Shown piece by piece: positions 41,045 through 57,933 of a stretch of DNA of 64,000 bases (the first letter of the stretch is position 1; the number at the start of each line of letters is the position of its first letter). The notes beneath the pieces are model-generated. The model saw only the letters and a list, made by a program, of their open reading frames with translations. It searched no databases and was not told the origin of the DNA. Source of the DNA: an archaeon (GTDB lineage Archaea > Nanobdellota > Nanobdellia > Woesearchaeales > UBA9642); NCBI GenBank assembly GCA_020057295.1, contig JAGVGF010000002.1, forward strand, positions 24,776 through 88,775, given 5' to 3'. The translations under genes and the position numbers were made by a program.

Positions 41045-41118
41045 TGGGGACGCTGAGATTCGAACTCAGATTAACCGCTCTGGAGGCGGTTGTTCTAGCC
41101 AGGTTATACTACGTCCCC
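41045..41118 (-). tRNA. tRNA-Trp (anticodon CCA), no encoded CCA, apparently intron-less
   Basis: Hand-folded. Acceptor GGGGACG/CGUCCCC, anticodon stem ACCGC/GCGGU with loop CUCCAGA, T arm CUGAG-UUCGAAU-CUCAG, discriminator A. D stem has one A-A mismatch. Confidence 0.8.
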
Positions 41119-41267: not shown

Positions 41268-43628
41268 TTACTTTCTGCCTCTACGTTTCTGTTTAATAAA
41301 TGCTGCAATGTATATTAGTACTAATATTATTAAGAATATCGCTAAATTAACGTACCAGCAGTATACATTGTATAATTGTGTGAATGATTTTCTTGGAATA
41401 TTCTTTACGACTAATGTAAATTCTGGTGATGAAGTTTTGCCGCCTTGAGGATCATATGCTGTTATCTTAGCATATTCTACACCACTCCAACCACTATTTG
41501 GATAGAATGTTACTTGTTTACCTTCGATTATGGCCTTGATATTTTTTATACCGCTAACATTATACTTTAATGTAGCATTATCGGGATCATAAAAGAATTT
41601 AGAAATGTCTAATACATACTTGCTATCTTGTAGCCATTCATAACGTAATTCTGAAGCGTCATTAGTCAAATTATATACTTGTGATTCGGTTTTAGGCAAT
41701 CCGCTAAATGTTAATACGAATACTAAACCCATTAAAAATACTACTACTAAAAGTATTAATATAGGTATTTTTGCTTTGAATCTGTTGCTGAATTTGTAAG
41801 GATAGTGTGGACCGACAATTAAGAATATTACAATCAATAGAATTACTAATAATATCGCTAATAGTTCGTATAGGCTGAATTGTCTGCATACTGTGCCATA
41901 AGCTAAGTATTCGAATGTTTTAGTAATTATATTCTTATCTTTTAATTTTACAATAGTTTCTTGTGTGTATGTCACGCCGCTTGAATCTTCAATTATTAAT
42001 TGTCCGCCATAATAACTATCATTCTTATTTGCAGCATTAACTTTTAATGTAACATACTTGGTTTCTGACTTGTTAATATTTACTAATGTGTCATCTAATG
42101 CTAAAATATTAGAACCATTCCATGATACTATATATTTTCCATTAACTAAACCTTTGTTAGTTATAGGCATATTTACTTGTGTAGTTTGATAATTAATTTG
42201 ATAATTTGTCTTATCAACATTTACGACATGACATGTTGGTAAGTCATAGCTTTTAATCCAGAATTCATTATATTCATTAATTCCGTTCTTTATTGTTGCT
42301 TTAACTTTGATATCGTAATCTTTATTCTCTTCAGGTCCTGTTATTAATACTTTGAAAAATCCTTTCTTACCAGATTCTACAGTAACACTATTTTTAGATA
42401 ATTTTACTGATGATGGAGCATTTTCTAAACTCAATGCATATGTTTCAGTATATTTTCCATTATTTAATATTTCACCATCATAACTATACGTGTATGATTC
42501 ACAAGTTCTTAATGGAGCATTTTTATTATTATCATAATCATATAATATCACTTCGTGTTCATAACATGGAAGGAAATTTATTAATAATTTAGAATTCTTA
42601 ACTATATCGCCAAGTTCTGGTGTAACTTCAATCTTTACTTCTGCTGTCTTATATTCTGTTCGATATATTGTTGAATCCACAACTACATAAAATTTCTTGG
42701 ACTCTCCAGGTTTTAATGTGAAAGCGTTATTATCTAATTTGCTTAATCTTGCATATTTTGGCAATCCTTTAACTTCTGCTGTATAATTATTAGTTATACT
42801 TCCCTTGTTAGTTATTGTTACAGGAATCTCATTATACTGTATTCTATTACATACATCAACATTTACTGTGTTGTTAGAATCGCTTCCTATAGTTACATCA
42901 TAATCATAATTTCTTAAAATATTTAATGGTGCATTAACGCTTGCTGATAATTCATTCTTCAAGGAATGTGCGGTGAATATTATATCTTTTGAACCATATA
43001 CGTTACAATCAAATTTTGCTGTTGCACTAATCTTTCCAATCTGATTAGGCTCTAATGTAAAACTTTTAGCGTTATAGACTATATTATTATCATAATTACT
43101 CTCTAAATTGTACTCTTCAGAAAATGAGCCTGTGTTCTTTACTGATAGCTCAAAATTTTTTGATTGACAAGGATTAATATCAGTACTATAATTTCCTATA
43201 GCTAACTCAATATTTTGACATCTATCTCTTTGTAATTCCTTTACAATTGTCTTCTGCATGCCAAGATTTGATGTGACTGTAATTTTAAATTCATCAGATC
43301 CTGTGCTACAGTCAGAAGTTATGTATAAGTAAACATTTCTTGATTGTCCAGGTGCTAACTCGAAATTATTTTCAGAAGTCATAACTTGTGCATGAATTTT
43401 ATTGGTTGATATGGCAAATACTGCTGGCCATGTTCCAGTATTAGTTAGGCTGATAGTATCATATTTTGTAGAACAACTACATATACTAACTTTATCATAA
43501 GAACTAGTTAATGTGAAGTCTTTACTAGGAGTGTACGTATTGACATCAATCACACCAAATACGCTATTTGATAGCATTAAGAATGCCAGTAATATAATAA
43601 ATATTGAGGATAACTTCATAGTAACCAT
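41268..43628 (-). CDS. large exported cell-surface protein with C-terminal membrane anchor
   Basis: 786 aa. N-terminal signal-like MVTMKLSSIFIILLAFLMLSNSVFG, Asn/Thr/Ser-rich beta-type sequence, hydrophobic segments near residues 570-640 and at the extreme C-terminus followed by KQKRRGRK. Confidence 0.5.
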   Translation of the reverse strand: MVTMKLSSIFIILLAFLMLSNSVFGVIDVNTYTPSKDFTLTSSYDKVSICSCSTKYDTISLTNTGTWPAVFAISTNKIHAQVMTSENNFELAPGQSRNVYLYITSDCSTGSDEFKITVTSNLGMQKTIVKELQRDRCQNIELAIGNYSTDINPCQSKNFELSVKNTGSFSEEYNLESNYDNNIVYNAKSFTLEPNQIGKISATAKFDCNVYGSKDIIFTAHSLKNELSASVNAPLNILRNYDYDVTIGSDSNNTVNVDVCNRIQYNEIPVTITNKGSITNNYTAEVKGLPKYARLSKLDNNAFTLKPGESKKFYVVVDSTIYRTEYKTAEVKIEVTPELGDIVKNSKLLINFLPCYEHEVILYDYDNNKNAPLRTCESYTYSYDGEILNNGKYTETYALSLENAPSSVKLSKNSVTVESGKKGFFKVLITGPEENKDYDIKVKATIKNGINEYNEFWIKSYDLPTCHVVNVDKTNYQINYQTTQVNMPITNKGLVNGKYIVSWNGSNILALDDTLVNINKSETKYVTLKVNAANKNDSYYGGQLIIEDSSGVTYTQETIVKLKDKNIITKTFEYLAYGTVCRQFSLYELLAILLVILLIVIFLIVGPHYPYKFSNRFKAKIPILILLVVVFLMGLVFVLTFSGLPKTESQVYNLTNDASELRYEWLQDSKYVLDISKFFYDPDNATLKYNVSGIKNIKAIIEGKQVTFYPNSGWSGVEYAKITAYDPQGGKTSSPEFTLVVKNIPRKSFTQLYNVYCWYVNLAIFLIILVLIYIAAFIKQKRRGRK

Positions 43629-43673
43629 CTCGATAATATTGTTGATATATTAAAAAATAATAAATAAAAATTT

Positions 43674-44930
43674 TTAGTAGTATGGTTCTGAATCGTTTTT
43701 ATTATCTCTCATCTTATTGAATCCAATTACTAATCCAACGATTATTAAGATAACAACTAATACAACTAAACCTACTTCTAATGCTTGCTTGAATAATGAC
43801 CAGTCGCTAGAGCCACTCTTAGTTATTTTAGCAACTAATGGTATGCTCTTAGTGTCTCCGTCTGCATCGATGTTTAATGTGAATGCCTTATCACCAAGTT
43901 CTGCATTTGAATTACTACTAACGTATAAGTATGCTGTCTTTGATTGACCTGCTGGTATTACAACAACAGATGATGGATCTATTCTAGTAGTTGCCCAAGT
44001 TGATGCTCCTGTAACACTTAAAGTGTAAGTCTTACTATTTGCTCCAACATTGTTTATCACGATAGGATATACAACACTAGTTCCTTGAGCTACTTCCTGC
44101 ATATTTGGTACATTAACAATTGTATTACCTTGACCTGTTGTAGTGCTTGCGCCACAAGTGTCTCCTTTACTTACTTTTATACTGCCAGTAGTATCGGTCT
44201 CACTATACTCATCAAACTCTACTAAGATATTTACATCATATGTTCCTGCTTTTGTACACTCAGGAATTCTTAATAATAATTCTTCAAAAGTTCTAGATTG
44301 ATCAGGATCTATCTCGTCCATGTATTCAGAAACTTTAATGTTTAAATCTGGAACGCTCATAGTTACTTTTAAGTCCTTTATTTTGCTGTCCCAAAGATTA
44401 TGTACTTTTACTTTTCCTGTAAATGCTCTTCCAGCAACAACTTCTTGAGGGTCTAAACTGAAATCTTTAACTTCAACAGCCATACTTCTTTTTATTCCTT
44501 TTAGATATAATTGGTATGTCTTGTCAACTGATGTTCCATTTCTGTCATCTGCTCTTATTCTTAATTTGAAATAATCTTTATCTATTTTTGTTGGAACTTC
44601 TAAGTCCAAGTCAAAGCAATCGCTGTGTCCGTTTAATAAATCGAATGAATCAGTCATGTCGGTAATTTTTGCACTTTCTTGATTTGCATATGCATAACCT
44701 GAAATGTCAGCGTATATTTGTGCGTTAGTTACATCAGCTAATGCTTGTACACATACGTATATGTTTAATTTATCTCCTCTCTTATAGTCTTGGCTAACGC
44801 TTGATGTGCCGCTGTCTAATAGTGAGTGACTATTTACTTCAAGACTTGTAACCTGAAGATTAACTGCACTTACTAATCCAGTGCCTACAATAACGAATGC
44901 TAGAAACAATACGAACAATTTTGCTCTCAT
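43674..44930 (-). CDS. exported surface protein with C-terminal TM anchor
   Basis: 418 aa. Signal peptide MRAKLFVLFLAFVIVGTGLVSA, C-terminal LVVLVVILIIVGLVIGF then a charged tail. Confidence 0.5.
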   Translation of the reverse strand: MRAKLFVLFLAFVIVGTGLVSAVNLQVTSLEVNSHSLLDSGTSSVSQDYKRGDKLNIYVCVQALADVTNAQIYADISGYAYANQESAKITDMTDSFDLLNGHSDCFDLDLEVPTKIDKDYFKLRIRADDRNGTSVDKTYQLYLKGIKRSMAVEVKDFSLDPQEVVAGRAFTGKVKVHNLWDSKIKDLKVTMSVPDLNIKVSEYMDEIDPDQSRTFEELLLRIPECTKAGTYDVNILVEFDEYSETDTTGSIKVSKGDTCGASTTTGQGNTIVNVPNMQEVAQGTSVVYPIVINNVGANSKTYTLSVTGASTWATTRIDPSSVVVIPAGQSKTAYLYVSSNSNAELGDKAFTLNIDADGDTKSIPLVAKITKSGSSDWSLFKQALEVGLVVLVVILIIVGLVIGFNKMRDNKNDSEPYY

Positions 44931-45045
44931 TTTATTACCCCCAAACTGATTTCTGAATATGACTGTTATCGAATAGATAAACGTTATTATTTATAAATGT
45001 TTCGTTTCTTTTACTACTCGATAGTAAAACATTTTTCATGTTTTT

Positions 45046-47568
45046 TTACTTTTTTATGACTAGTTCCCTATATTTTATTCTTCGAACTTCGTCATTACCA
45101 ACACTGATTTTAACATAATAGGTTCCAGGTGTTATACTATACAATGGTATTGTAACAGTTTCTGCCTGTGTTCCACCACGATTCAAATCGAATGATGTTG
45201 ATCTTCCTTCAATTCCTAATTCCGGAATACTCACTACAACTCTGGAATTTTTCAACTTTGAACCATACTCATTCTTAACTTCAACATTTACTGTTAAATC
45301 ATCATTAGGCTTCAAAATATCATAACCATCCATGCCATAAATTAATAAGTGTGTTATCAATAATCCGCCTTTAGACTTATCAATTATTACTACTGGTTTT
45401 GGCATACTAGAACCATCTAATATTGTTGCTGTAGTTCTTCCAGAATTAATAGAACCATTAGCGTAGTAAATTGTTAATGTTACTGTATAAACATTTATTG
45501 CTGTATATGTGTGTTGAATTGTTGGTGTTGTTGTATCTGCGGTTTTACCGTCTCCAAAATTCCATAAGTATCGAACTATTTGTCCAGTACTTTTTGAAGC
45601 ATCAAATGTTACTGGCTGATTAACATATCCGTTGTATGGTCCACCCATATCAAATATTAATGTTTGATTAGTAGTTCCATTACTTGTTGTTCTAACTATT
45701 CCGCAATTTGCTAATACTACATTATTATTTGCATCAGTTACTGTTACACTTGAACTAAATGTTCCAACATTATTATATATGTGTGTAACGCTATTTAATG
45801 TATTACTACTTACGCCACCGTCACCAAATGACCATATGTAATTATATGGTGCTGTTCCGCCGTTAACAAGTGCGTTCATACTAACGCTTAATGGAATATT
45901 ACCGTTTGTTGGTGATGCAGTACATGCAACAGTAAACGTTGCGTTTGTATTATTTACAATTCCAGTAATTACGTGAACATTAATTCTTGTAGTACTATAA
46001 TCATTGTCTAAATCACTGGCTCTTAAATCAATTATATCATCACCTAAATTATTTCCGGTAATTGCTAGAACGTTTCCTGAATTTATTACTGTTGTAATTC
46101 TAAACGGATTATTAGTTATACTCCATCTTAATGTATTATCTTCTAAATCATGACCATAACTGTTTAATCCTATATATGATGTTTGTCCAACATTAATATA
46201 CACATCAGGTATGTTGCTTATTGTTGGCTTATTATTTAATATGATTAAATTAACTTGTGCTTGTCCGCCTGTTAATCCTGTAAAGTTAAATGCGAATGCA
46301 AAAACATTACTATCTCCTAAAAACTCATGTCTTAATGGTATCATATCTAATTTATAATAATACCAGTTACCATTATAGCTTAACCTGCTCAAATCAACTC
46401 TACCGCCTGGTAGACTGACTAGTGCTGCTGCTGTAACAATATCGCTTGTAACAAATGTGTTACTTATAGGATCGTAAACTTGAAATTTTGCATATAATGA
46501 TTCTCCTCTATAGAATGTGTTATCTGGATAGAAAAAATTACTATCATTATATGTTGCTAAATTAATAACATTATATCTTTGAGCGTATACATCAAATGTG
46601 TATGATGCACCATTGCCTGTATAATTAATATATCCTGGTGCACTTGCTGTAGCATAAACTGTGTATGTTCCAACACCACTTACAGGACTAGTTACTGTAC
46701 ATCCGCCACTAAGCGTATTTGTTTTACATGTTCCGAATAATCTTCCGTCGCTGTATGCAATTTTTACATCAACATTTCCTGGAACTAATCCGTTACTTGA
46801 TGTAACCATTACACTGCATGATTGATTGTTATTGTTTACAACTCTTGGAAAACAATTTATTGATTGTATACTTAATGTTGGTGGAACAACTGTAATTGCT
46901 CCAACTCCACAATTAGCTGTTACACTTACACTATTACTGTCTACAACTCTTAATGTAGGATTAAATGTTCCTATATTATATGTGTGTGTTTGAGTATTTG
47001 TTAAAGAATTTGTTGATACACTAAATATACTTGAACCATCATTATAATTCCAATTATATGTATATGGCGCATTTCCTCCGGTTACTGTTCCAGTAAAATC
47101 TACATTTAATGGAGCATATCCGTTAGTTGGCACTGCATTACATGAAACTGCAAATGTTGAAACTGCTGTAGGTAAAACATTTAATATTAATCTAAAACTA
47201 TCAGAACTAAATCCGTCAACAGATTTTATGTAAACATAATATGTTCCATTTGTATTTCCATATTGTGTTGGTGTAACATTTATGTAGCCATTAGCGCCAT
47301 TGCCTACTGTTGCTGTTGTTGGAATATAAGTAAATATAGGGTTTGTTAATCCTTGCTTGTATAATGTAATATTGTATTGTCCGCCTCTTGTACTAATTGC
47401 ATGAACTCTATATTCAAATTCTGCAGTTTGACCATTATTAATATTTAACACTACATCATTATTACTAGTCCATGTAGCTTGATTGATTGATGCCATTACT
47501 GGACTAACACATACAATGCTTAAAATGAACAATAATACAATTATCCAACTTTTCATTTTATCCCTCAT
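45046..47568 (-). CDS. large secreted protein with multiple PKD-like repeats
   Basis: 840 aa. Signal peptide. At least three repeats with the PKD hallmark (NVDFTGTVTGGNAPYTYNWNYNDGS; SVSMNALVNGGTAPYNYIWSFGDGG; VTFDASKSTGQIVRYLWNFGDGK). Confidence 0.55.
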   Translation of the reverse strand: MRDKMKSWIIVLLFILSIVCVSPVMASINQATWTSNNDVVLNINNGQTAEFEYRVHAISTRGGQYNITLYKQGLTNPIFTYIPTTATVGNGANGYINVTPTQYGNTNGTYYVYIKSVDGFSSDSFRLILNVLPTAVSTFAVSCNAVPTNGYAPLNVDFTGTVTGGNAPYTYNWNYNDGSSIFSVSTNSLTNTQTHTYNIGTFNPTLRVVDSNSVSVTANCGVGAITVVPPTLSIQSINCFPRVVNNNNQSCSVMVTSSNGLVPGNVDVKIAYSDGRLFGTCKTNTLSGGCTVTSPVSGVGTYTVYATASAPGYINYTGNGASYTFDVYAQRYNVINLATYNDSNFFYPDNTFYRGESLYAKFQVYDPISNTFVTSDIVTAAALVSLPGGRVDLSRLSYNGNWYYYKLDMIPLRHEFLGDSNVFAFAFNFTGLTGGQAQVNLIILNNKPTISNIPDVYINVGQTSYIGLNSYGHDLEDNTLRWSITNNPFRITTVINSGNVLAITGNNLGDDIIDLRASDLDNDYSTTRINVHVITGIVNNTNATFTVACTASPTNGNIPLSVSMNALVNGGTAPYNYIWSFGDGGVSSNTLNSVTHIYNNVGTFSSSVTVTDANNNVVLANCGIVRTTSNGTTNQTLIFDMGGPYNGYVNQPVTFDASKSTGQIVRYLWNFGDGKTADTTTPTIQHTYTAINVYTVTLTIYYANGSINSGRTTATILDGSSMPKPVVIIDKSKGGLLITHLLIYGMDGYDILKPNDDLTVNVEVKNEYGSKLKNSRVVVSIPELGIEGRSTSFDLNRGGTQAETVTIPLYSITPGTYYVKISVGNDEVRRIKYRELVIKK

Positions 47569-47588
47569 CTAAAGTATATCTTAATAAT

Positions 47589-48932
47589 CTAAAATTTGTA
47601 TATTAATGATGCATTAACGCCGTTTTTTGTTCCGTCATTTGGATTAATATCTCCTGTTACATCAAGATATAATCCATCAATTCCTTTAATTCCGCCTAAT
47701 CTTAAACCTACAGGTATACTGAAATATGAATTACTTCCTTCTGTAGTTGGTTGTGTTACTGGTGGTTTTGAAAGAGGATTATTTTGTGCTCTATCTCTTA
47801 TAGTTTCTGTAACTGTACTTTCTAATGTTGAGTTACTACTATTATATTGAGCGCCAACTCCTACTTTTAAGTTGTTTCCTCCTAGCCAAGCCATTACTCT
47901 TGTTTTCCATCCAGTATATTTCTCTGTGAATTTTTGTACAGTAGATCCAAATGTTGAATTCCATGTACTATCATAATCTTTATTTGAATTACCTATCAAA
48001 TTAGTTTTAGCAACTGTTCCTTCTAAATCCCAATGTGAATCAGGGCTATATCCTAATGTTAATCCTGTAACATTTCCTTTATTTGTTGAACTTCCATCTT
48101 TTCCAAATAATAATCCTGCATACCATTTTGATTTTGTTGTGTCAGGAACATCTGTTGTATCAGTTCTAGCTGTACTATTTCCTGATGTTCTATTACTTAC
48201 TGCAGAACTATCTGTTAATCCTGAAGCAATTAATGCTGTACTGTCAGTAACTCCTGGAATGTACAACATGAATTTTACTTCCTCGCCATCATATCTTTTT
48301 ATTACTGTTCTACCATTCTGTACTATAGTATCAGTATATGCTGGAGTTCTACGTATTGCTCCAAATTGTAATCCGCGATGTCCTGCTCTTCCAACGGTTA
48401 ATGCATCTGCAGCTGTTTCTCTACCATCATAATTATTGTTGCCTAAATGTGTTGAAATATCTTTTAGCAATGTTGTATCTCTTGGCATTCTTCCCATTTG
48501 TGTACTATCCGCAAGATCTTTACGCCATTGCGCTAATGCTCTTTCATCAGCTATGATTACTTTATCGTTAGGATTTTTCTTTTTTAATGCAGCAATATTT
48601 CTCTTTTCATAATTTATTAATCCTTCAGGAGTCATTAACACCCATTGTCCATGAGGTGCGTTAGGATATGTACTTCCATAATTTAATTCTTTAGCTTCTC
48701 TGCCCGGAATTACAGTAACTCTGTCCGGTACTGCAATACTTCGACCAGGAATGAATGCTGTACTAGTATCTTTGGTAATCCTGTTGTGTTGTAATGGTGT
48801 TCTTGATTGTGCATCTAATTCGGTGCTTAACATGTAACTTCCAATTAGAAATATTCCTGCTGCTTTAAGTGCATCAATTAAATCTGTTTTAAGACTAGAA
48901 TAATTATAGTTATTTATATTTGTAAAGTTCAT
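47589..48932 (-). CDS. secreted beta-rich protein with OMP-like C-terminal signature (ends ...ASLIYKF)
   Basis: 447 aa. Internal hydrophobic signal-like segment near residue 20-35. C-terminal third alternates polar and hydrophobic residues and ends in Phe. Confidence 0.4.
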   Translation of the reverse strand: MNFTNINNYNYSSLKTDLIDALKAAGIFLIGSYMLSTELDAQSRTPLQHNRITKDTSTAFIPGRSIAVPDRVTVIPGREAKELNYGSTYPNAPHGQWVLMTPEGLINYEKRNIAALKKKNPNDKVIIADERALAQWRKDLADSTQMGRMPRDTTLLKDISTHLGNNNYDGRETAADALTVGRAGHRGLQFGAIRRTPAYTDTIVQNGRTVIKRYDGEEVKFMLYIPGVTDSTALIASGLTDSSAVSNRTSGNSTARTDTTDVPDTTKSKWYAGLLFGKDGSSTNKGNVTGLTLGYSPDSHWDLEGTVAKTNLIGNSNKDYDSTWNSTFGSTVQKFTEKYTGWKTRVMAWLGGNNLKVGVGAQYNSSNSTLESTVTETIRDRAQNNPLSKPPVTQPTTEGSNSYFSIPVGLRLGGIKGIDGLYLDVTGDINPNDGTKNGVNASLIYKF

Positions 48933-49042: not shown

Positions 49043-49402
49043 TTATATATTTATCAATACTATTCCTAATATTATAAAACATATCCCTATCCATTTATAA
49101 TTATTCATACGCTCTTTCAAATAATATATTGATAAGATTGTAACAAAAATGTATGACATAGAACTTAAAGGATATACTACTGATAAATTTCCAAGTTTTA
49201 ATGCTAACACGAAAAATATTCCAGATATTCCATATAATGCTATTCCACAGATTATATAATAATTTTTTATGATTTTAATTATTCCGTTAATTGTTATTTC
49301 TAATGTAAATTTTTTTGATCCTTTTTTTAGTAATGTTGTTCCTATAGCATTACCTATTGTTGCTATTAATACAAATAATATTATAACTACTGAATTATTC
49401 AT
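49043..49402 (-). CDS. EamA/SMR-like 4-TM small membrane protein (ArnE/ArnF-like), partner B
   Basis: 119 aa, four TM helices, ALKLGNLSVVYP motif. Overlaps partner A by 4 nt. Confidence 0.5.
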   Translation of the reverse strand: MNNSVVIILFVLIATIGNAIGTTLLKKGSKKFTLEITINGIIKIIKNYYIICGIALYGISGIFFVLALKLGNLSVVYPLSSMSYIFVTILSIYYLKERMNNYKWIGICFIILGIVLINI

Positions 49403-49758
49403 TTTTTAATACCTGCACCAATAAACGATACTCCTACTATTATGAGTAAAATTCCAGTCATATTAATATATGATACAGTCTCATTAAATATTATCATCGC
49501 AAGAACTGTCGTCCATATAAAACTTAATGCAACAAACGGATATAAAAGCGATACATCTCCATGTTTAAGTGCTAATATTAATAGCATAGATGCTGTAAAA
49601 TACAAAATCAATCCTAAAATTAATGGAATGTTAGTTATAATTTGATAAAAACTATCAATATTCTTTGTAGAAAGCTTTAATAATATTTGCGCAGCGGCGG
49701 TAATAAAACTACACAATATAACTAATCCAACAGCCAAAAATTTATTGCTATAATTCAT
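49399..49758 (-). CDS. EamA/SMR-like 4-TM small membrane protein (ArnE/ArnF-like), partner A
   Basis: 119 aa, four TM helices, ALKHGDVSLLYP motif. Immediately downstream of aglB on the same strand. Confidence 0.5.
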   Translation of the reverse strand: MNYSNKFLAVGLVILCSFITAAAQILLKLSTKNIDSFYQIITNIPLILGLILYFTASMLLILALKHGDVSLLYPFVALSFIWTTVLAMIIFNETVSYINMTGILLIIVGVSFIGAGIKK

Positions 49759-49762
49759 TTTA

Positions 49763-52681
49763 TTAAGAATTTACAGGCCACTTTACTTTCCAAATTATTA
49801 TTCTAGTGCCAGTAATATCTGTAACATCAGAGAATTTCTCAAAATTATTCATATACTTACCATCTAAGTAAAATAATTTTGTGAATGTAGATTCTAACAA
49901 TATTGGATCCGAGATTAATGCTGAATATCTAGTCTGATTATTTGATCTATCTATATTTAATAATAATCCAAGATTCATTGTAGTATTATCTACATCGTAT
50001 CTTTTCATCTCTTCATCTGCTATTACTAAACTCTTCCAGAATGCTACGTTTTCTCCAACTTTGGAATTAGTTGCTTTATCGTATATTCCTATTAATACTT
50101 GTGAACTTTCTGGATTAGTTAAATTTATTGCAGCACGCTGTAATACTATATTTTGTTGTCCGTTACTTCCAATGCCTAGATTTAGATCACATAATACTAA
50201 GTCTTTAGTATAATTTACACAACCAATTAAACTACCTGTTGCATAACTAGGCCATGTTGATATCCAATCATTCATCTCTCTATCTGTTTGTAATGCTTGA
50301 ACTTCATAATATATTCTTGAAGCTTCATCCGCGCTATACTGGAAGAAACTACTTCTTTCTTTGAATCGTTCTTCCATTATTTTCATTGCTTCATCATAAG
50401 GTTTTGTTCTTACATTATTTATTATGAATGCTTTATCAAAGTCCCATGTTCCAAAGTGTGCCCATACACCGGCTTTTCCTACCATATCTTCTGACGTTAT
50501 GAAATAGTTCTCTGGAGGATTACAATGTGTTAATAATAATATTTTATCTATCTCACTTGAAGTGTAACCATAAATTTCAAGAGTTTTTCTAGCTTGAGTT
50601 TTATCTTGTATTACTATTTCATCAACTATATTTTGAGTTCTTTCTGTATCATTATACTTTTTATTCATCTCGTCAAATCCTGTTGTACTACCACAATCTA
50701 ATATTCTTAATAATCCTGTTGCTCTCTTCTCATCGCTAGTTGTTAATGTTTGTGCAAGGTATTGTACGAATGGTCCACTCTGTGCAGAGCCATCTGCTGT
50801 TACTTTACGTTCAGCAACATATTTGAACCAGTGTCCGAAATCCCACCAAGAGTTTATTATTGCATCAGGTTTTGATTCTTCTCTTATTTTTGTTAATGAA
50901 TCCCACCATCCAATAGTCATTGATGGCATATAACTTTTACCTGTAGCAATTCCTGCTTGTATGGGAATTATCAATATTAAACACAATAGTGCAAATACTA
51001 TTAGTTTTGAAATGTTTTCCTTAACATTTAATCCTTCATGGAATAATCTAGAAATATATTCGTAAATATATCCTATAGCAACTCCTAATGCTACAGAGAA
51101 TGCGGGTATAAGCAATAGATTAAATCTTATGCCCTTGATACTAGCATATATCATAAACACGTACCATATTCCAAGTATTAATGGAATCTTAATATCGTGT
51201 TTAGAATCTTTATCTAGTAATATGTTTAGTATGCCTAGTGCTATTGGTATAAGTAGAACTATAGTATATACTGTTGGATTCATACCATATCCTATGGAAG
51301 ATGTAAGTATAGCATATACTATTATTGCAATTATTAATAATATATATTCCTTAGTTGTTGGTTTCTTTCCTACTAGCAAGAATATTATTCCAAGTAATGA
51401 TATCGCAAAGAGTATTGGTATCCCAAATCCTATCTGCCCAACTGTTGTCGCAACATTACCCTCATTTAATTCTGCGACTGTAGTCATAATATTAGGCCAT
51501 AATTCTGCTTGAGCAGCAACTTTAAGGTTTGCATTAACAGTAAACGGCGTCATGAACACTCCGAAAAATGCTCCTATACTTCCAGCAAATAAACTTACAA
51601 ATATTGCCGAAAAAACGAATATGCTAGCAAATAATATTAATTCTTGTTGAATATGTTTTTCTTTCCAGAAGTGTATGCGTTTATGATGCATGTAGTCTTT
51701 AACGATTATAAATCCTATGTGTCCTATTATAGCTAATAACATAAATAAGAATATATACCAGTAGCCACCCCATGCAAAACTAAATAATCCCATCAATAGA
51801 CCCGTAAGACCACCGAGTAAAATTTTATTTAAAGTGTTTCTAGCATCATATGCTTCTAAAAATATCCAGATTATTACAAGTGGGAAAACTACATTCCATA
51901 TATCAGTATCGGATCCTAGACTTCTAGAAATTAATAATGGACTTAATGCAAATAGCATTGCAGCGAAAAATCCTCCGACTTCATTCATTAATTTTCTACC
52001 AATAAAGAATGCTGCTATAGCTCCAATGACTGCCAATAATGTTGGTAGATAGAATTGTGCCTGCATTAAATTAATTTTAGAATCGAAGAAATGTAAAAAT
52101 TTGTATAACACAAATATTCCGTAAGGATGCATTGTTGCACCAACCGGTGTACCTATAGGCGCAATCATTTTTGTATCTATACAGATATTGTTTTCTATCT
52201 TATCACATACTACCCCGTTTCTTTCAATATTTCTAGCTTGATTCAAATAGTAGTATGAGTCTAAATCTCCTAAGAACGTGTATGTGTTATTATTTTCTTG
52301 ATATTGAAATCCTGTTTTAAAATAATTTGATGTTTGCATTACTTGTTGTTCAACATATGCTTCGTTAGTTTTTAAAAAACCAGCAAATTGTTCGTCAACA
52401 AGTTTTTGACGCTGTACTACTGGTAGATTTGGATATTGTGCATTAATGTTTTGTGCAATACCGTTTTTATAATAATTATATACTGCATTACGTGACATGT
52501 CATCTGTTGCAGGCAAATATTGTGGTAGAACTCTAATATACACTGTTAAAGCCACAGGTATAAGAATAAGTAATAATAGTATTAATATGTTTAAATTTTT
52601 TGGTGTAAAGAAATTCCTAATTTTTGTAAAATCGATTTTTACATCATCTTTTTTATCATGTTCATCAGTCAATTTGTACAC
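49763..52681 (-). CDS. aglB: archaeal oligosaccharyltransferase AglB (STT3 family)
   Basis: 972 aa. Polytopic N-terminal domain plus a soluble C-terminal domain carrying SWWDFGHW (WWDYG catalytic motif variant). Confidence 0.8.
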   Translation of the reverse strand: MYKLTDEHDKKDDVKIDFTKIRNFFTPKNLNILILLLLILIPVALTVYIRVLPQYLPATDDMSRNAVYNYYKNGIAQNINAQYPNLPVVQRQKLVDEQFAGFLKTNEAYVEQQVMQTSNYFKTGFQYQENNNTYTFLGDLDSYYYLNQARNIERNGVVCDKIENNICIDTKMIAPIGTPVGATMHPYGIFVLYKFLHFFDSKINLMQAQFYLPTLLAVIGAIAAFFIGRKLMNEVGGFFAAMLFALSPLLISRSLGSDTDIWNVVFPLVIIWIFLEAYDARNTLNKILLGGLTGLLMGLFSFAWGGYWYIFLFMLLAIIGHIGFIIVKDYMHHKRIHFWKEKHIQQELILFASIFVFSAIFVSLFAGSIGAFFGVFMTPFTVNANLKVAAQAELWPNIMTTVAELNEGNVATTVGQIGFGIPILFAISLLGIIFLLVGKKPTTKEYILLIIAIIVYAILTSSIGYGMNPTVYTIVLLIPIALGILNILLDKDSKHDIKIPLILGIWYVFMIYASIKGIRFNLLLIPAFSVALGVAIGYIYEYISRLFHEGLNVKENISKLIVFALLCLILIIPIQAGIATGKSYMPSMTIGWWDSLTKIREESKPDAIINSWWDFGHWFKYVAERKVTADGSAQSGPFVQYLAQTLTTSDEKRATGLLRILDCGSTTGFDEMNKKYNDTERTQNIVDEIVIQDKTQARKTLEIYGYTSSEIDKILLLTHCNPPENYFITSEDMVGKAGVWAHFGTWDFDKAFIINNVRTKPYDEAMKIMEERFKERSSFFQYSADEASRIYYEVQALQTDREMNDWISTWPSYATGSLIGCVNYTKDLVLCDLNLGIGSNGQQNIVLQRAAINLTNPESSQVLIGIYDKATNSKVGENVAFWKSLVIADEEMKRYDVDNTTMNLGLLLNIDRSNNQTRYSALISDPILLESTFTKLFYLDGKYMNNFEKFSDVTDITGTRIIIWKVKWPVNS

Positions 52682-52729
52682 CCCATAAAAGTTTTATAAT
52701 TTGGTTTATAAATTTGATTAAACTATGTT

Positions 52730-54094
52730 CTATTTTTTTATATTATCTTCCACTATTGTCCATATTATCGCAAGCCCTCCAGCGGCAAAAATTATATCTA
52801 AAGGAGTAGTTGGCGCCTTATATCTTGCTAGATATACTGTTATCCCAAAAAAGAACCAAGCGATAAGATAAATTAGATAGAATGGTATAAAATTTTTCCA
52901 TTTTTGTATTGATACTATTACTCCTATAAGTGTAAATATCCAAAAGAACCATAATTGAGCAAGTAATGACTTAGGATTTTTAATTAATCTTTGGAATGCT
53001 TCTAGATTAGGAAATAACCAGTATTGCATAGAAAATTGATACATTTTATTAATAGTTTTATCCGGATTGTTTAGAATGTAGTTAATAGCATATTTTGTTG
53101 TACACTTATTTTGCTTATACACAAAATCATTTAATTCTTTCTTCGTTAAATTAGCGGCCGTACCCTTTCTATATATTTCTCCGCAATTACCATCAGATGT
53201 GTTTGTATCATATACATAATCCCATTTATAAACGCTAGTCATCCATAATGTTCCTTCAGGGTTGTTGCCTAGATAGAGATTCAATCCAGAATTAGAATTA
53301 ATAAATATTGGATGTCCATAATCTAAAGAAGTGTATATACACCAAGGTATAAGTATTATTGAAGCTCCAACAATAAATAATCCTAAAGGCATTATACCTC
53401 TCTTAAATATTTTTATATCTATTTTTTTATTGTTATGATAGAATATTAAGAATAATACAAGTACAAATCCAAACATTAATCCAGGAATTTTACTTAATGC
53501 CGCTATCCCAGACAAAATACCTATATATATGTATTTACTTTTTGTTTCGTTATCTATTGATTTTGCTGTTAAGTATATTGCCCAGCTGAAAGCAAAAATC
53601 ATCCAAAATTCCGTCCATAAATGTGCACTATAATAAACAATGTATGGATGAACTAGTGCGAGCAAACATGCAATGAATGCTGCTGTTTCACCAAAGAATT
53701 TCTTTGTTGGATAGAATAAAAAGTACGCTATGAGTAAAGACGCTATTATTTGAATTATTCTTCCAATATAATGATCAGGTCCAAAAATCGCATAGACCCC
53801 TACAAGGTATATTGTTTCTAGAGGATTAAAATATGAGCTAATGGTTGCTTTTCCGTTCAAGAAATCTATTGCATTGAGGTTATATCCCCATGCATCACTA
53901 CCAACAAATTCGTCGTTTAATCCTATGTTAGCTTCAGATATTTTTAAGTATAATGATAATATTATGAATAGAATTAATATTGCTGTTTTTATGGGATGTT
54001 TTTTTATTATATTAATAAAAGATTTCATTCTTTCAGTTATTTTTTCTTCTATTTTCTCTTTTGATTTGCCTGAATCAATCATAATAACCCCCAT
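52730..54094 (-). CDS. GT-C fold membrane glycosyltransferase (ArnT/PMT, GT39/GT83-like)
   Basis: 454 aa, about 11 TM helices. First periplasmic/external loop and helix pattern (…AYFLFYPTKKFFGETAAFIACLLALVHPYIVYYSAHLWTEFW…) typical of ArnT/PMT-type enzymes. Confidence 0.5.
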   Translation of the reverse strand: MGVIMIDSGKSKEKIEEKITERMKSFINIIKKHPIKTAILILFIILSLYLKISEANIGLNDEFVGSDAWGYNLNAIDFLNGKATISSYFNPLETIYLVGVYAIFGPDHYIGRIIQIIASLLIAYFLFYPTKKFFGETAAFIACLLALVHPYIVYYSAHLWTEFWMIFAFSWAIYLTAKSIDNETKSKYIYIGILSGIAALSKIPGLMFGFVLVLFLIFYHNNKKIDIKIFKRGIMPLGLFIVGASIILIPWCIYTSLDYGHPIFINSNSGLNLYLGNNPEGTLWMTSVYKWDYVYDTNTSDGNCGEIYRKGTAANLTKKELNDFVYKQNKCTTKYAINYILNNPDKTINKMYQFSMQYWLFPNLEAFQRLIKNPKSLLAQLWFFWIFTLIGVIVSIQKWKNFIPFYLIYLIAWFFFGITVYLARYKAPTTPLDIIFAAGGLAIIWTIVEDNIKK

Positions 54095-54245
54095 CCTTAT
54101 TGTTAGAGTAAATTGTATTCATAATTATAAATATTTCGAAAAACCCTTGAATTTTAGATTTTAATAATTTAAATTGAAAATATTTATTAATTACTCCACT
54201 ATTCTGTTCTTTATAGTAATTAGTGATATAATATGGTGATATGTT

Positions 54246-54965
54246 ATGTATAAAAATCAGAAAGTATCTGTCGTTTTTTCAACATATAACGAGAAACAAA
54301 CTATTAGGCAACAGATTAATGATTGTTTTGCTATACCTTATGTTGATGAAGTTGTTGTAGTTAATAATAATGCAGCAAAAGGTACTACAGAGGAAGTTCG
54401 TAAAACTAAAGCTAAATTATTCTTTGAAACTAAACAAGGTTACGGTCACGGTTATCAGAGAGGATTAAAAGAAGCTACGGGAAATATTATAATTATGTCT
54501 GAACCTGATGGAACATTTCATCACAAAGATATTATTAAACTTTTAGATTATTCTGACGAATTCGATGTGGTTTTTGGAACAAGAACTACTCAAGCTACTA
54601 TAATGAAAAATGCTAATATGGGTTTTTTTCTAAAATGGGGTAACTGGTTTATAGCTAAATTAATAGAAGTAGGATATAATACTACACATTTAAGCGATGT
54701 CGGTTGTACAATGAGATTAATAAAAAAATCTGCATTAAGGAAGATACAACCCCATTTTACCATTGGTGGTTCAACATTCGGTCCACAATTCATGGTCCTA
54801 GTAGTATTGAAAAAAATTCCTCACGTAGAAATACCAGTACATTATGGTACTAGGGTAGGTAAATCTATGGGTACAAAAAATAAATTCAACGCATTTATAA
54901 TGGGATTAAAAATGATTTGGATTGTATTCAGTTACAGAATCAAGGGTTGGTTTAAGAAATATTGA
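54246..54965 (+). CDS. family 2 glycosyltransferase (dolichyl/polyprenyl-phosphate sugar synthase, Dpm1/ArnC-like)
   Basis: 239 aa. VFSTYNEKQTI..., DEVVVVNNNAAKGT, and a DxD-like region EPDGT. GT-A fold, short soluble form. Confidence 0.65.
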   Translation: MYKNQKVSVVFSTYNEKQTIRQQINDCFAIPYVDEVVVVNNNAAKGTTEEVRKTKAKLFFETKQGYGHGYQRGLKEATGNIIIMSEPDGTFHHKDIIKLLDYSDEFDVVFGTRTTQATIMKNANMGFFLKWGNWFIAKLIEVGYNTTHLSDVGCTMRLIKKSALRKIQPHFTIGGSTFGPQFMVLVVLKKIPHVEIPVHYGTRVGKSMGTKNKFNAFIMGLKMIWIVFSYRIKGWFKKY

Positions 54966-54992
54966 TTGATAGTTTATTATTCGAGGTGTCAC

Positions 54993-55640
54993 ATGATTAA
55001 TGTCAACAAAATTTATGAGAGACGATTTGGTAAAGATGCTGTTTTTAGACAGAAAATGTATTCTGTGTTATGTTCAAAATTTTTCCAAAAATATATTTCT
55101 AAAAATGCTACGGTTTTAGATGTGGCTGCAGGATATTGCGAATTCATTAATAACATTCAAGCAAAGCATAAAATTGCTTTAGATATTAATCCTGATATAA
55201 GAAAATTTGCAGATAAATCGGTAAAGATTATACTAGCACCATCTACGGATATGAGCAAAATTTATTCTAACACTATAGATAATGTTTTCATAAGTAACTT
55301 TTTTGAACATATAACAAAAGAGGATATAATTAAGACACTTAATGAAATTCATCGTGTATTAAAAAAAGGCGGAAAATTAATGATATTACAACCTAATATT
55401 CGTTATAGTTATAATGATTATTGGATGTTTTTTGATCACATAACGCCTTTAGATGATAGAAGTTTATGTGAAGTCCTAGAATTGACGAATTTTAAAATCG
55501 TTGAGTCTAGGCCAAAATTCTTGCCTTATTCCACAAAAAGTAAGCTACCAAAATCTATAATATTATTGAGAATATATCTTAAGTTGCCAATACTACAAAG
55601 AATTATGGGTAAGCAAGCATTTGTTGTTGCACAAAAATAA
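54993..55640 (+). CDS. class I SAM-dependent methyltransferase
   Basis: Motif I VLDVAAGYCEF and LKKGGKLMI. The ORF-track TTG start at 54966 directly abuts the upstream stop; ATG 54993 is preferred. Confidence 0.55.
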   Translation: MINVNKIYERRFGKDAVFRQKMYSVLCSKFFQKYISKNATVLDVAAGYCEFINNIQAKHKIALDINPDIRKFADKSVKIILAPSTDMSKIYSNTIDNVFISNFFEHITKEDIIKTLNEIHRVLKKGGKLMILQPNIRYSYNDYWMFFDHITPLDDRSLCEVLELTNFKIVESRPKFLPYSTKSKLPKSIILLRIYLKLPILQRIMGKQAFVVAQK

Positions 55641-55734
55641 TTAAGATTATGTTCCGCGTATGTGTTGACTTAAGTGTGTACTTTCAGATTTGAAATTAAT
55701 AAACTTAATAAAACATTTGTCCTTCTAGTGTTTT

Positions 55735-56406
55735 ATGAAGATTTTTGTAGTACTGCCCGCGTATAATGAAGAGAAACAGATTGGTAATGTTATTCGTTCT
55801 CTTAAAAAGAATGGTTATAAGAATATTGTTGTTGTAGATGATGGTAGTTCCGATAAGACTTCGAGTATTTCTAGAAAAGAAGGTGCTATTGTTGTACGTA
55901 ATATTATGAATATGGGTGTTGGCGGAGCCAGTGTTGCTGGTATTGAATATTCGTTTAGGATTGGAGCAGATATTGTTGTCACAATAGATTCTGATGGTCA
56001 GCATGATGTGAAGGACATAAAAAAAGTTATTACACCATTGTTAAATAATAGTGCAGATGTTGTTAGTGGATCCAGAATGTTCAATCCAAAGGGCATGCCT
56101 TTAATAAGAAGAATTGGTAATTTCGGTCTAAGTTTTATAACATTTATTTTATTTGGTATATGGTCTACAGATTCACAAAGTGGTTTCAGGGCAGTCACAA
56201 AACATGCCTGGAAAAAGATGCATATAAAAGCTACAGGTTATGAATATAATTCTGACATGTTACGAGAGGTAAGATACCAAAATTTAAGGTTTAAAGAAGT
56301 TCCTATACGTGTAATATATACAGAATATTCGTTATCTAAAGGTCAAAGTGTTATGGGAGGAGTTAGGACATTTATTAGTATACTAAAAAGAAGATTTTTA
56401 GGTTAG
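55735..56406 (+). CDS. family 2 glycosyltransferase (Dpm1-like polyprenyl-phosphate glycosyltransferase)
   Basis: 223 aa. IFVVLPAYNEEKQI, VVVDDGSSDKT, and IDSDGQHD (DxD). Confidence 0.7.
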   Translation: MKIFVVLPAYNEEKQIGNVIRSLKKNGYKNIVVVDDGSSDKTSSISRKEGAIVVRNIMNMGVGGASVAGIEYSFRIGADIVVTIDSDGQHDVKDIKKVITPLLNNSADVVSGSRMFNPKGMPLIRRIGNFGLSFITFILFGIWSTDSQSGFRAVTKHAWKKMHIKATGYEYNSDMLREVRYQNLRFKEVPIRVIYTEYSLSKGQSVMGGVRTFISILKRRFLG

Positions 56407-56471
56407 TTTTTCTTGAGTTAAAATTAGCAAATTATATAAATGCACATTCTTTCTCGTAGAGTGGTGGTATA

Positions 56472-56816
56472 ATGAATATAGTTCAAATGCTAATTATAAT
56501 TTTTGCTGTATATGCTATAGTTAAAGTAGTTCTTAGACTGAGAGATAAATCATTAAGTCCTGTAGAATCTTTTTTATGGGCTATACTTTGGGTTGGAGTG
56601 ATATTCGCTGCCATATTCCCTAACACACTCATAGAACTTTCTAATGATTTAGGTTTGGGAAAAACATTGAATATGTTAGTATATCTTAGCATATTATTAT
56701 TGTTCTATTTAGTGTTTAGATTGTATAGTGCGCTTGACAAGTTAGATCATAGATTCAACACGCTTGTCAAAGAATTAAGTATTGAACGTACGATTAAACG
56801 TAAAAAAAGTAAGTGA
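56472..56816 (+). CDS. small GT2-associated membrane protein (DUF2304-like)
   Basis: 114 aa, 3 TM helices then a basic C-terminus. Genes of this size and topology commonly follow Dpm1-like GT2 genes. Confidence 0.4.
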   Translation: MNIVQMLIIIFAVYAIVKVVLRLRDKSLSPVESFLWAILWVGVIFAAIFPNTLIELSNDLGLGKTLNMLVYLSILLLFYLVFRLYSALDKLDHRFNTLVKELSIERTIKRKKSK

Positions 56817-56838: not shown

Positions 56839-57933
56839 ATGAAAATTTTAATTATATGTCCTGATTGGTTTCCGAATATTTCAGGTTTTGGAATATCTGC
56901 ATATGAGTTCTCTCAAGAATTACTTAAAGATAAGCATGAAGTAACAATAATAACATCTTCTCAGAAAAATCTTGATAAAAAAGGATTAAACGTTGTGAGT
57001 GTTAAAATGTTGTTTAACCCGTTAGGCAGAAATCCTATAGTTTTCGGATTGTACAATAAAATTAAGAATGTCGATTATGATGTAATATTGTTGTATAGTT
57101 ATATGTATGAAATGAATGTGCGTGTGGCATTATACAGAAAATTAGGTTTAATAAAAAAACCTGTTATTTTAATGTACAGAGGCAGTTTAGAAAATGATGT
57201 ACTGCCCTTCTTGAAAACATCGACAAAGATAGCGAAAAAAACATATGATGCAACACTTGCTAGAATGTTATTCAAAAATGTTGATTATACTATTTCTAAT
57301 TCTAAACCAACATTAAAGCTAATTAACGAAAAATATCTTGTCTCACATAAAAAAATGTCTTATATTTCTAGCGGCATACCTGTTATGGATTTTAAGAGAA
57401 GTAAGCTAAGTAATAAACGTGTATTATTTAATGGAAGGTTAATAGAAAATAAGGGTATAAACTTTTTTGGAAAAATATTAGAAACTATTCCAAAAGATTG
57501 GAAGTTTACAATTATTGGAGATGGTCCATTAGAGAAAGAAATTTTGAGATTAAAAAAGAAATATAAAAATATTGAATATTTAGGCAAGGTTTCACACGCT
57601 GTTGCTAAAGAAATGTACTCAAAGGCAGACATACTAATATTACCAACATTTGCTGAAGGATCGCCGCGTGTAGTTCTAGAAGCATGTGCATCGGGAGTTC
57701 CATCGATAGCATTTAACGTCGGGGATGTTCCAACAATACTTGATAACAATAAGAATGGTTATTGTATAGAAAGATATAACATAGAAAAATTTACAGAAAA
57801 ATTAGAATTATTGATAAAAAATAGGGAATTAAGAAAAAAATTAGGCGATAATGCCTATACTTTTGCAAGAAAAAATTTAGACTGGAAAATTGTTTATAAA
57901 AAAATGCTTAAAGAAATTAGAGGTTTGTTATGA
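56839..57933 (+). CDS. family 4 (GT-B) glycosyltransferase
   Basis: 364 aa. C-terminal EGSPRVVLEACASGVPSIA (E-x7-E-type GT4 motif). Confidence 0.7.
   Translation: MKILIICPDWFPNISGFGISAYEFSQELLKDKHEVTIITSSQKNLDKKGLNVVSVKMLFNPLGRNPIVFGLYNKIKNVDYDVILLYSYMYEMNVRVALYRKLGLIKKPVILMYRGSLENDVLPFLKTSTKIAKKTYDATLARMLFKNVDYTISNSKPTLKLINEKYLVSHKKMSYISSGIPVMDFKRSKLSNKRVLFNGRLIENKGINFFGKILETIPKDWKFTIIGDGPLEKEILRLKKKYKNIEYLGKVSHAVAKEMYSKADILILPTFAEGSPRVVLEACASGVPSIAFNVGDVPTILDNNKNGYCIERYNIEKFTEKLELLIKNRELRKKLGDNAYTFARKNLDWKIVYKKMLKEIRGLL

Follow-up and report, generated by a model that had tools for sequence, protein, structure and literature searches.

An ArnE/ArnF-like gene pair in an archaeal aglB operon: a candidate flippase for dolichyl-phosphate monosaccharides

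The aglB locus and its gene pair

We analysed a 64-kb stretch of the woesearchaeal contig JAGVGF010000002.1 (positions 24,776 to 88,775; "the window" below means the whole of this DNA), with a focus on two small membrane-protein genes, here called subunits A and B, which lie directly downstream of the gene for the N-oligosaccharyltransferase AglB and resemble the bacterial lipid-linked sugar flippase ArnE/ArnF. The window has a guanine-plus-cytosine content of about 31%, and the closest named relatives of its AglB come from Candidatus Woesearchaeota and Nanoarchaeota metagenome-assembled genomes. The coordinates of the open reading frames (ORFs) place four genes in a tight minus-strand operon, in the coding order GT-C glycosyltransferase, aglB, A and B (Table 1), with a gap of 48 nt between the GT-C gene and aglB, a gap of 4 nt between aglB and A, and a 4-nt overlap, ATGA, between A and B. 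The two 119-aa ORFs contain the motifs ALKHGDVSLLYP and ALKLGNLSVVYP quoted in the initial annotation and share 34% identity across 65 aa, which bears out its description of two overlapping genes of the EamA or small multidrug resistance (SMR) type, similar but not identical, immediately after aglB. The ArnT/PMT-like GT-C gene that it listed is also present, although upstream of aglB and not after the small genes.

A 151-bp intergenic region, which presumably holds the promoters of both operons, separates this operon from a divergent plus-strand one. The latter encodes a family 2 glycosyltransferase (GT2a), an S-adenosylmethionine (SAM)-dependent methyltransferase, a second family 2 enzyme (GT2b), a DUF2304 protein, two family 4 glycosyltransferases (GT4), a methyltransferase, an AsnB-like protein and another methyltransferase, and is followed by a convergent GT2 gene. 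The two divergent GT2 genes and the DUF2304 gene had been recognised before, while the SAM methyltransferase gene between the GT2 genes had been overlooked. Judged by Pfam matches, the glycosylation island extends from 56839 to the end of the window (63994). All three components of a sugar-transfer system, namely a GT2 resembling sugar-lipid synthases, a small flippase-like pair and a GT-C enzyme, are encoded in the window.

Table 1. Features of the aglB locus and its surroundings, in window coordinates
Feature	Position	Strand	Basis
GT-C glycosyltransferase, PMT_2 (ArnT/PMT-like), 454 aa, first gene of operon	52730..54094	-	Pfam PMT_2
AglB/STT3 oligosaccharyltransferase, 972 aa	49763..52681	-	Pfam STT3, WWDFGH; 100% identical to JGI protein P0006
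Subunit A, ArnE/F-like four-helix protein, 119 aa; start 4 nt past aglB stop	49399..49758	-	NCBIfam ArnE
Subunit B, ArnE/F-like four-helix protein, 119 aa; 4-nt overlap with A	49043..49402	-	NCBIfam ArnF
Divergent intergenic region between operons, 151 bp	54095..54245	.	ORF coordinates
GT2a glycosyltransferase, 239 aa, weakly AglJ-like / dolichyl-phosphate-hexose-transferase-like	54246..54965	+	Pfam Glycos_transf_2
SAM-dependent methyltransferase, 215-224 aa (JGI call: 215 aa)	54966..55640	+	Pfam Methyltransf_11, _23, _25
GT2b, 223 aa, candidate polyprenyl/dolichyl-phosphate monosaccharide synthase (like PpgS, AglJ and dolichyl-phosphate-mannose synthase)	55735..56406	+	NCBIfam, PDB match
DUF2304 small membrane protein (GacJ/Rv3632-like)	56472..56816	+	Pfam DUF2304
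GT4 gene	56839-57933	+	Pfam
GT4 gene	57930-59129	+	Pfam
Methyltransferase	59130-60200	+	Pfam
AsnB-like amidotransferase	60202-62088	+	Pfam
Methyltransferase	62076-62915	+	Pfam
GT2	62933-63994	-	Pfam
Four consecutive large predicted surface/secreted proteins (PKD, FixG_C-like Ig folds), directly downstream of aglB operon	41268..48932	-	Pfam

Family, fold and charge bias of the two subunits

Both subunits score above the gathering cut-off of the Pfam family EamA (28.7 bits for A and 46.1 bits for B; cut-off 28.2) and below that of Multi_Drug_Res (19.8 and 23.5 bits; cut-off 23.7), on which EmrE itself reaches 121.5 bits. The combination of EamA, Multi_Drug_Res and TMEM234 matches is common to A, B and E. 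coli ArnE, and no Pfam match to a GtrA-like or Polysacc_synt/MurJ/MatE domain was found in either subunit. Among the NCBIfam models, the best one for A is ArnE (40.1 bits; equivalog cut-off 92), and the best for B are ArnF (42.5 bits; cut-off 99) and then ArnE (34.9 bits); the Qac, Ebr and Mdt models give far lower scores on both. Thus, in the profile searches that had been proposed as a check, the small proteins score best as ArnE/ArnF and not as drug exporters, and the GT-C protein falls in a glycosyltransferase family.

Family alignments of 22 A-type and 21 B-type sequences gathered from other genomes lead to the same assignment. ArnE or ArnF were the most often matched NCBIfam families for these relatives (21 of 22 A-type and 21 of 21 B-type), with best E-values of 1e-12 to 2e-14. 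When the family profiles were compared with the E. coli K-12 proteins by hhalign, ArnE matched the A family at 98.2% (E = 4e-14) and the B family at 97.6% (E = 3.5e-12), ArnF matched each family at about 87% (E = 4e-6), and EmrE matched them at 82% and 69%, respectively, with E-values of about 1e-5 and an alignment that covers only transmembrane helices (TM) 2-4. ArnE is hence a much better match than EmrE for both families, and both hhalign and NCBIfam indicate a stronger homology of A and B to ArnE/ArnF than to other SMR subtypes. By these profile comparisons, A and B are distant homologues of ArnE/ArnF. Each of them is nearer to ArnE than to ArnF, and because both resemble ArnE more, they are not one-to-one orthologues of the two bacterial subunits.

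The wider family is large, with 12,407 clusters (50% identity) at E <= 1e-3 and 2,175 at E <= 1e-10. Some relatives carry the automatic labels 'ArnE' (JGI), 'EamA family transporter' (NCBI), 'DMT-like permease' or 'EmrE-like', where DMT stands for drug/metabolite transporter; since the JGI annotation already uses the name ArnE, the resemblance is not a hidden one. A look-up of the exact sequence of subunit A returned no database record.

The AlphaFold2 model of B (mean predicted local distance difference test score, pLDDT, 91.9) has four long helices and a short helix in loop 1. Its top 11 matches in the PDB are all Gdx-Clo or EmrE, with TM-scores (template modelling scores) of 0.44-0.78, and no lower match passes a probability of 0.35; B is accordingly modelled with an SMR fold. 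There is no conserved Glu or Asp in TM1 of the A-family or the B-family alignment, and TM1 of EmrE, which bears the central Glu, fails to align with either subunit in hhalign. The Tyr of a conserved 'YP' motif in A and B aligns with EmrE Tyr60, the Tyr switch, and Gln24 and Lys28 of TM1 are invariant in the A family, as are Lys26, Tyr84 and Glu97 in the B family. In the lipid-transporting SMR subtype, the central Glu of TM1 is replaced and the Tyr switch is kept (PMC9574504).

These features bear on a different reading, in which A/B is an ordinary small DMT/SMR exporter or importer of a soluble molecule, such as a drug, a cation, a metabolite or a glycan substituent (e.g., choline), and owes its place in the island to chance or to a side reaction. 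The Pfam family of both subunits is the generic EamA, weak PDB sequence matches lead to NIPA2, LicB and EmrE, source annotations include 'DMT-like permease' and 'EmrE-like', and some pairs are located away from glycosylation genes. However, the proton-coupled SMR exporters (Qac/EmrE, Gdx and MdtIJ) have a TM1 with a central Glu, whereas no such Glu is conserved here and the EmrE helix aligns with neither subunit; both subunits also remain below the Multi_Drug_Res cut-off, and ArnE outscores EmrE by a wide margin (E-values of 1e-12 to 1e-14 as compared to about 1e-5). The linkage to glycosylation genes described below recurs in several arrangements, with two unrelated kinds of sugar-lipid synthase as well as with GT-C enzymes. 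On this evidence, we regard a soluble substrate as very improbable.

The distribution of positive charge differs between the subunits. We computed a K/R bias as the number of Lys and Arg residues in the N-terminus, loop 2 and C-terminus minus that in loops 1 and 3, and obtained +2 for A and -8 for B of the window. The mean is +3.4 for 25 A-type sequences, none of which is negative, and -5.4 for 23 B-type sequences, all of which are negative; the biases of A and B are opposite in each of the 23 sampled pairs. Many A subunits have a Lys/Arg-rich N-terminal tail. From these values, A is predicted to have its N- and C-termini inside and B to have the opposite orientation. The gene order is always A-type and then B-type, both genes occur together in every sampled genome, and the 4-nt overlap is common. 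Paired SMR genes that form antiparallel heterodimers have opposite biases centred on about +4 and about -4 (PMC9574504), with which our values agree, and we infer that A and B likewise assemble as an antiparallel heterodimer.

Partner enzymes and gene context

The GT-C protein scores 57.7 bits on Pfam PMT_2 (cut-off 26.1) and 24.2 bits on Glyco_transf_22, and a search for PDB sequence matches to it found none. One column of its first loop is occupied by Asp or Glu in 9 of 10 relatives, and in the remaining one, L001, the acidic residue is shifted by one position. AglB reaches 105.9 bits on Pfam STT3 and 33.4 bits on STT3-PglB_core, and its WWDFGH motif is invariant among relatives. GT2a matches Glycos_transf_2 (60.4 bits) and, below the cut-offs, the NCBIfam models for AglJ (66.7 bits) and dolichyl-phosphate hexose transferase (50.3 bits). 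GT2b gives higher NCBIfam scores, the best of which are 153.4 bits on PpgS (cut-off 370) and 122.4 bits on AglJ, both below the equivalog cut-offs; its best PDB match is the dolichyl-phosphate-mannose synthase of P. furiosus (5mlz, E = 9.6e-11), followed by ArnC. The gene for the DUF2304 protein (Pfam, 81.5 bits) directly follows that for GT2b. GacJ and Rv3632, which are DUF2304 proteins, bind and stimulate GacI and PpgS (bioRxiv 10.1101/180810); by analogy, the DUF2304 protein is likely an activating partner of GT2b.

As a separate observation on AglB, several homologues from Woesearchaeota (P0090, P0106, P0117, P0122 and P0123; up to 1300 aa) are fused to peptidyl-prolyl isomerase domains of the parvulin/rotamase, FKBP or cyclophilin type, and at the P0331 locus two SurA-like rotamase genes lie just upstream of aglB. 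These fusions and neighbours hint at a coupling of protein folding to N-glycosylation.

To describe the gene context, genome contigs were scanned with an AglB alignment, which yielded 80 loci from different species, with AglB 34-57% identical. Counts refer to the 74 loci with an AglB ORF, from other Woesearchaeota species, whose flanking ORFs were searched with purpose-built hidden Markov models (HMMs). An A/B pair is located within 10 kb of aglB in 20 of the 74 loci and directly after aglB in 10; the co-occurrence of pair and aglB that had been put forward as a check is therefore frequent, not universal. The GT2b orthologue directly follows the pair in half of the pair loci (10/20) and directly follows aglB in 27 of the 74 loci, usually with DUF2304 next (these include L025, L033, L043, L044, L050-L055, L060-L062, L064, L067, L069, L071, L073-L075, L077, L078, L082, L083, L085 and L086). 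A DUF2304 gene is found in 43 of the 74 loci, and the order GT2b-DUF2304 recurs in many. Two loci have complete co-directional operons, AglB-A-B-GT2b-DUF2304-GT-C (L047) and GT-C-GT2-A-B-GT2b-DUF2304 (L070). Because it recurs in distantly related genomes, the arrangement of the locus reflects more than chance.

The pair is associated with PMT_2-like GT-C genes: both are present in 8 loci, the GT-C alone in 1, the pair alone in 14 and neither in 51 (odds ratio 29, Fisher p = 1.5e-4, not corrected for phylogeny). Of 21 pair loci, 4 also have Wzx-like flippases. Their joint presence points to separate roles for the two and rules out a mutual exclusion between them; such an exclusion would have favoured a role of the pair in delivering the donor of AglB, which is considered below. 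We found no Wzx/MOP-type flippase gene within the 64-kb window by Pfam or with an iterative Wzx HMM.

Seven contexts centred on the pair were also examined. The L001 locus has the order SecY-AglB-A-B-epimerase with PMT_2 genes nearby, and its aglB follows the ribosomal-protein/secY operon. The P0331 locus reads AglB-A-B-GT2...DUF2304-GT2-methyltransferase...GT4-GT4-GT2, and L095 has a GT2 gene, A-B, GT2...epimerase-Wzx...GT4. At L094 (6211-8354), the pair is preceded by a PAP2 phosphatase and then a UbiA-family protein that scores 214.7 bits on the model for decaprenyl-phosphate phosphoribosyltransferase (cut-off 234), a type of synthase that is used in pentofuranose three-component systems (PMC11127046). 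With this chemically different sugar-lipid synthase, the gene order at L094 resembles the polyprenyl-phosphoribose pathway of mycobacteria and Citrobacter, here in an archaeon and beside the same flippase-like pair, and it gives an independent link of the pair to sugar metabolism.

Other neighbours belong to protein export. The pair is directly or closely downstream of secF-secD in three genomes (L091:4736-8351, L092:4597-8351 and L095:3792-8339), and secF-secD and secY are recurrent links of the pair or of aglB to protein-export genes. An AA_kinase gene adjoining the pair in L091 and L093 was considered as an isopentenyl phosphate kinase, which would have given a link to dolichol synthesis, and was rejected, as it encodes an archaeal UMP kinase.

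Candidate function and related systems

These results suggest that A/B is probably a heterodimeric flippase for dolichyl-phosphate (Dol-P) monosaccharides and one part of a three-component glycosylation system whose genes are linked to the aglB operon. The ArnE/ArnF homology, the SMR fold, the opposite charge biases and the gene linkage all lend support to the flippase role that the initial annotation had put forward. At the cytoplasmic face, GT2b, aided by the DUF2304 protein and possibly together with GT2a, would load a single sugar onto dolichyl phosphate, and the A/B dimer would then pass the polar head group through the membrane by facilitated diffusion, probably without proton coupling, since the Glu-bearing TM1 of EmrE aligns with neither subunit. 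At the outer face, the PMT_2-like GT-C encoded just upstream of aglB would consume the Dol-P-sugar, with surface proteins or the N-glycans that AglB has attached as its likely acceptors. The carrier is presumably dolichyl phosphate, as the host is an archaeon.

Several observations weigh against this proposal. The NCBIfam scores of A and B (40-42 bits) are well under the equivalog cut-offs of 92-99, and the function proposed for the archaeal pair is derived from homology and gene context. The flippase activity of ArnE/ArnF is itself supported by genetics and not by reconstitution (PMC9574504). No A/B pair is present within 10 kb in 54 of the 74 aglB loci, and none is found at that distance in any of the 27 AglB-GT2b(-DUF2304) loci, so that a linked pair is no strict requirement for the synthase. 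Three of the seven pair-centred contexts have no adjoining glycosylation genes: in L091 and L092 the pair follows secDF, and in L093 it precedes pyrH. The co-occurrence statistics ignore shared ancestry. On the other side, the small proteins do not score as unrelated transporters that lack a conserved linkage to aglB or GT-C genes, and the GT-C protein matches a glycosyltransferase family.

The close linkage to aglB can also be read in terms of the donor of AglB itself. In that case, A/B would flip a short Dol-P-linked glycan that starts with a sugar added by the AglJ-like GT2b and that, in organisms with such reduced genomes, may comprise no more than one or a few sugars; AglB would then transfer this glycan to Asn. 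The start of A 4 nt past the aglB stop codon, the order AglB-A-B(-GT2b) in 10 of 74 loci and AglB-GT2b in 27 of 74, the 122 bits of GT2b on the AglJ model and the lack of a Wzx/MOP-type flippase gene anywhere in the 64-kb window are all consistent with this. However, the characterised relatives of the pair flip monosaccharide head groups, and the two GT4 genes and the extra GT2 genes of the island imply a larger glycan. The pair also co-occurs with Wzx-like flippases in four loci, and the window represents 64 kb of a 268-kb contig, so that a Wzx gene may lie elsewhere. Finally, the pair tracks PMT_2-type GT-C enzymes and the phosphoribosyl-lipid synthase, to which a donor for a side branch fits better. 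We consider the delivery of the AglB donor unlikely; if it did take place, the pair would be the first identified SMR-class flippase for lipid-linked glycans in N-glycosylation in any domain of life.

The carrier lipid itself might also be the cargo. DedA and DUF368 proteins have been proposed to recycle the carrier lipid polyprenyl phosphate in bacteria, and A/B could similarly bring the free dolichyl phosphate back to the cytoplasmic face once the sugar has been transferred. Its gene context would be the same as that of a Dol-P-sugar flippase, and a dimer that acts by facilitated diffusion does not have to discriminate between head groups. However, a DedA/VTT-domain membrane protein is separately encoded in the window, about 9 kb from the cluster (39574-40251, minus strand; Pfam VTT_dom, 47.5 bits), and the closest characterised homologue flips the sugar-loaded lipid (PMC9574504). 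We give recycling only the slimmest chance.

The proposed Dol-P-monosaccharide flippase can be compared with ArnE/ArnF (PmrL/PmrM), the 'lipid transport' SMR subtype that flips undecaprenyl-phosphate-alpha-L-Ara4N (Ara4N, 4-amino-4-deoxy-L-arabinose) in E. coli and Salmonella (PMC9574504). The proteins are similar in size (111 and 128 aa in the bacterial pair, 119 and 119 aa here), with four helices, and they share the Pfam match pattern, the Tyr at the position of EmrE Tyr60 and the failure of the Glu-bearing EmrE helix to align. Both arnT-arnE-arnF of E. coli and GT-C-aglB-A-B of the window have the two small genes adjacent to each other and a GT-C gene upstream. The K/R biases are opposite in both pairs, with about -7 for E. 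coli ArnE and about +3 to +4 for ArnF as counted on the translated sequences. In contrast to E. coli, where the outside-biased subunit is encoded first, the inside-biased subunit comes first here, and this reversed order, together with the greater similarity of both subunits to ArnE, suggests that the archaeal pair probably arose by its own, separate duplication. The archaeal system also differs in its host, in its presumed lipid (dolichyl and not undecaprenyl phosphate) and in its operon partner, which is the N-oligosaccharyltransferase AglB.

The Arn-like module suggested earlier holds as far as the ArnE/ArnF-like pair, the GT2 and the GT-C enzymes are concerned, but it is not the Ara4N pathway itself. 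The cluster has no ArnA-, ArnB- or ArnD-type genes (formyltransferase/dehydrogenase, DegT aminotransferase and deformylase, respectively), and the sugar is therefore unlikely to be Ara4N.

Three-component systems are known from bacteria, for example, GtrB/GtrA/Gtr*, CsbB/GtcA/YfhO and pentofuranose systems with an EmrE/ArnE-like four-helix flippase (PMC11127046). As in these, a polyprenyl-phosphate sugar synthase, a small flippase and a GT-C are encoded together, and L094 has the phosphoribosyltransferase-plus-phosphatase type of synthase of the pentofuranose systems. The bacterial systems modify O-antigen, teichoic acids or arabinan, while the present genes belong to an archaeal N-glycosylation island, and the candidate flippase would be a heterodimer instead of a GtrA protein or a homodimer.

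The AglR protein of Haloferax is a large protein of the Wzx/MOP type, not an SMR protein, and it belongs to another system to which the present one can be compared. In Haloferax volcanii, AglD/AglR/AglS attach the last sugar, a mannose, of the N-linked pentasaccharide (PMC5867893). There, as proposed here, the Dol-P-sugar is made inside by a GT2, brought outside by a membrane protein and used by a membrane glycosyltransferase to extend an N-glycan that is already attached, with the genes beside aglB; unlike that system, the window has no Wzx-like gene. The direct succession of GT2b and DUF2304 corresponds to GacI/GacJ of S. pyogenes and PpgS/Rv3632 of M. tuberculosis, with the same Pfam families. 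The flippase of the GacI/GacJ system is Wzx-like (GacK), in contrast to the small pair found here, and GT2b remains under the PpgS equivalog cut-off (153 as compared to 370 bits).

In archaea, the route by which lipid-linked sugars get across the membrane is still poorly defined. The crossing of Dol-P-monosaccharides is unresolved in eukaryotes as well (PMC12992685). The initial annotation assumed that such a pair is not known to have been characterised in archaea, and our literature search agrees with it: the papers found treat the ArnE/ArnF subtype for bacteria only, and none of them connects a pair of the SMR type with aglB or with glycosylation in DPANN archaea. The review of SMR proteins left archaea out of its survey (PMC9574504). 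A/B would be a new representative, from the archaea, of a type of system that is already known, and its mechanism would not be new. The locus of the window and about 20 related loci provide a specific, small and easily expressed flippase candidate, for which a clear bacterial homologue makes complementation and scramblase assays straightforward to design. The bacterial three-component logic, with a GT2 and its DUF2304 helper, a small flippase and a GT-C, would also extend to DPANN archaea, where its genes are physically linked to the aglB operon. The host lineage is known from uncultured organisms, in which we infer the roles of all components.

Directly downstream of the aglB operon, the block of four large predicted surface or secreted proteins includes one of 447 aa without a Pfam match, and these proteins are possible substrates of glycosylation. 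They contain 2-12 N-X-S/T sequons each, with no excess over the expectation based on composition, and we therefore dropped sequon enrichment as a line of evidence. At the edge of this block, an ORF on the plus strand (40400-41041) has a weak match to the LAGLIDADG_3 homing endonucleases and adjoins a tRNA-Trp gene (41045-41118). An independent link of the small four-helix domain to sugar metabolism comes from outside the window: in P0270 and P0398 (505 and 510 aa), the domain forms the C-terminal part of a fusion protein with a DegT/DnrJ/EryC1 (ArnB-type) sugar aminotransferase, and this fusion is seen in two assemblies, in one of them on a 485-kb contig.

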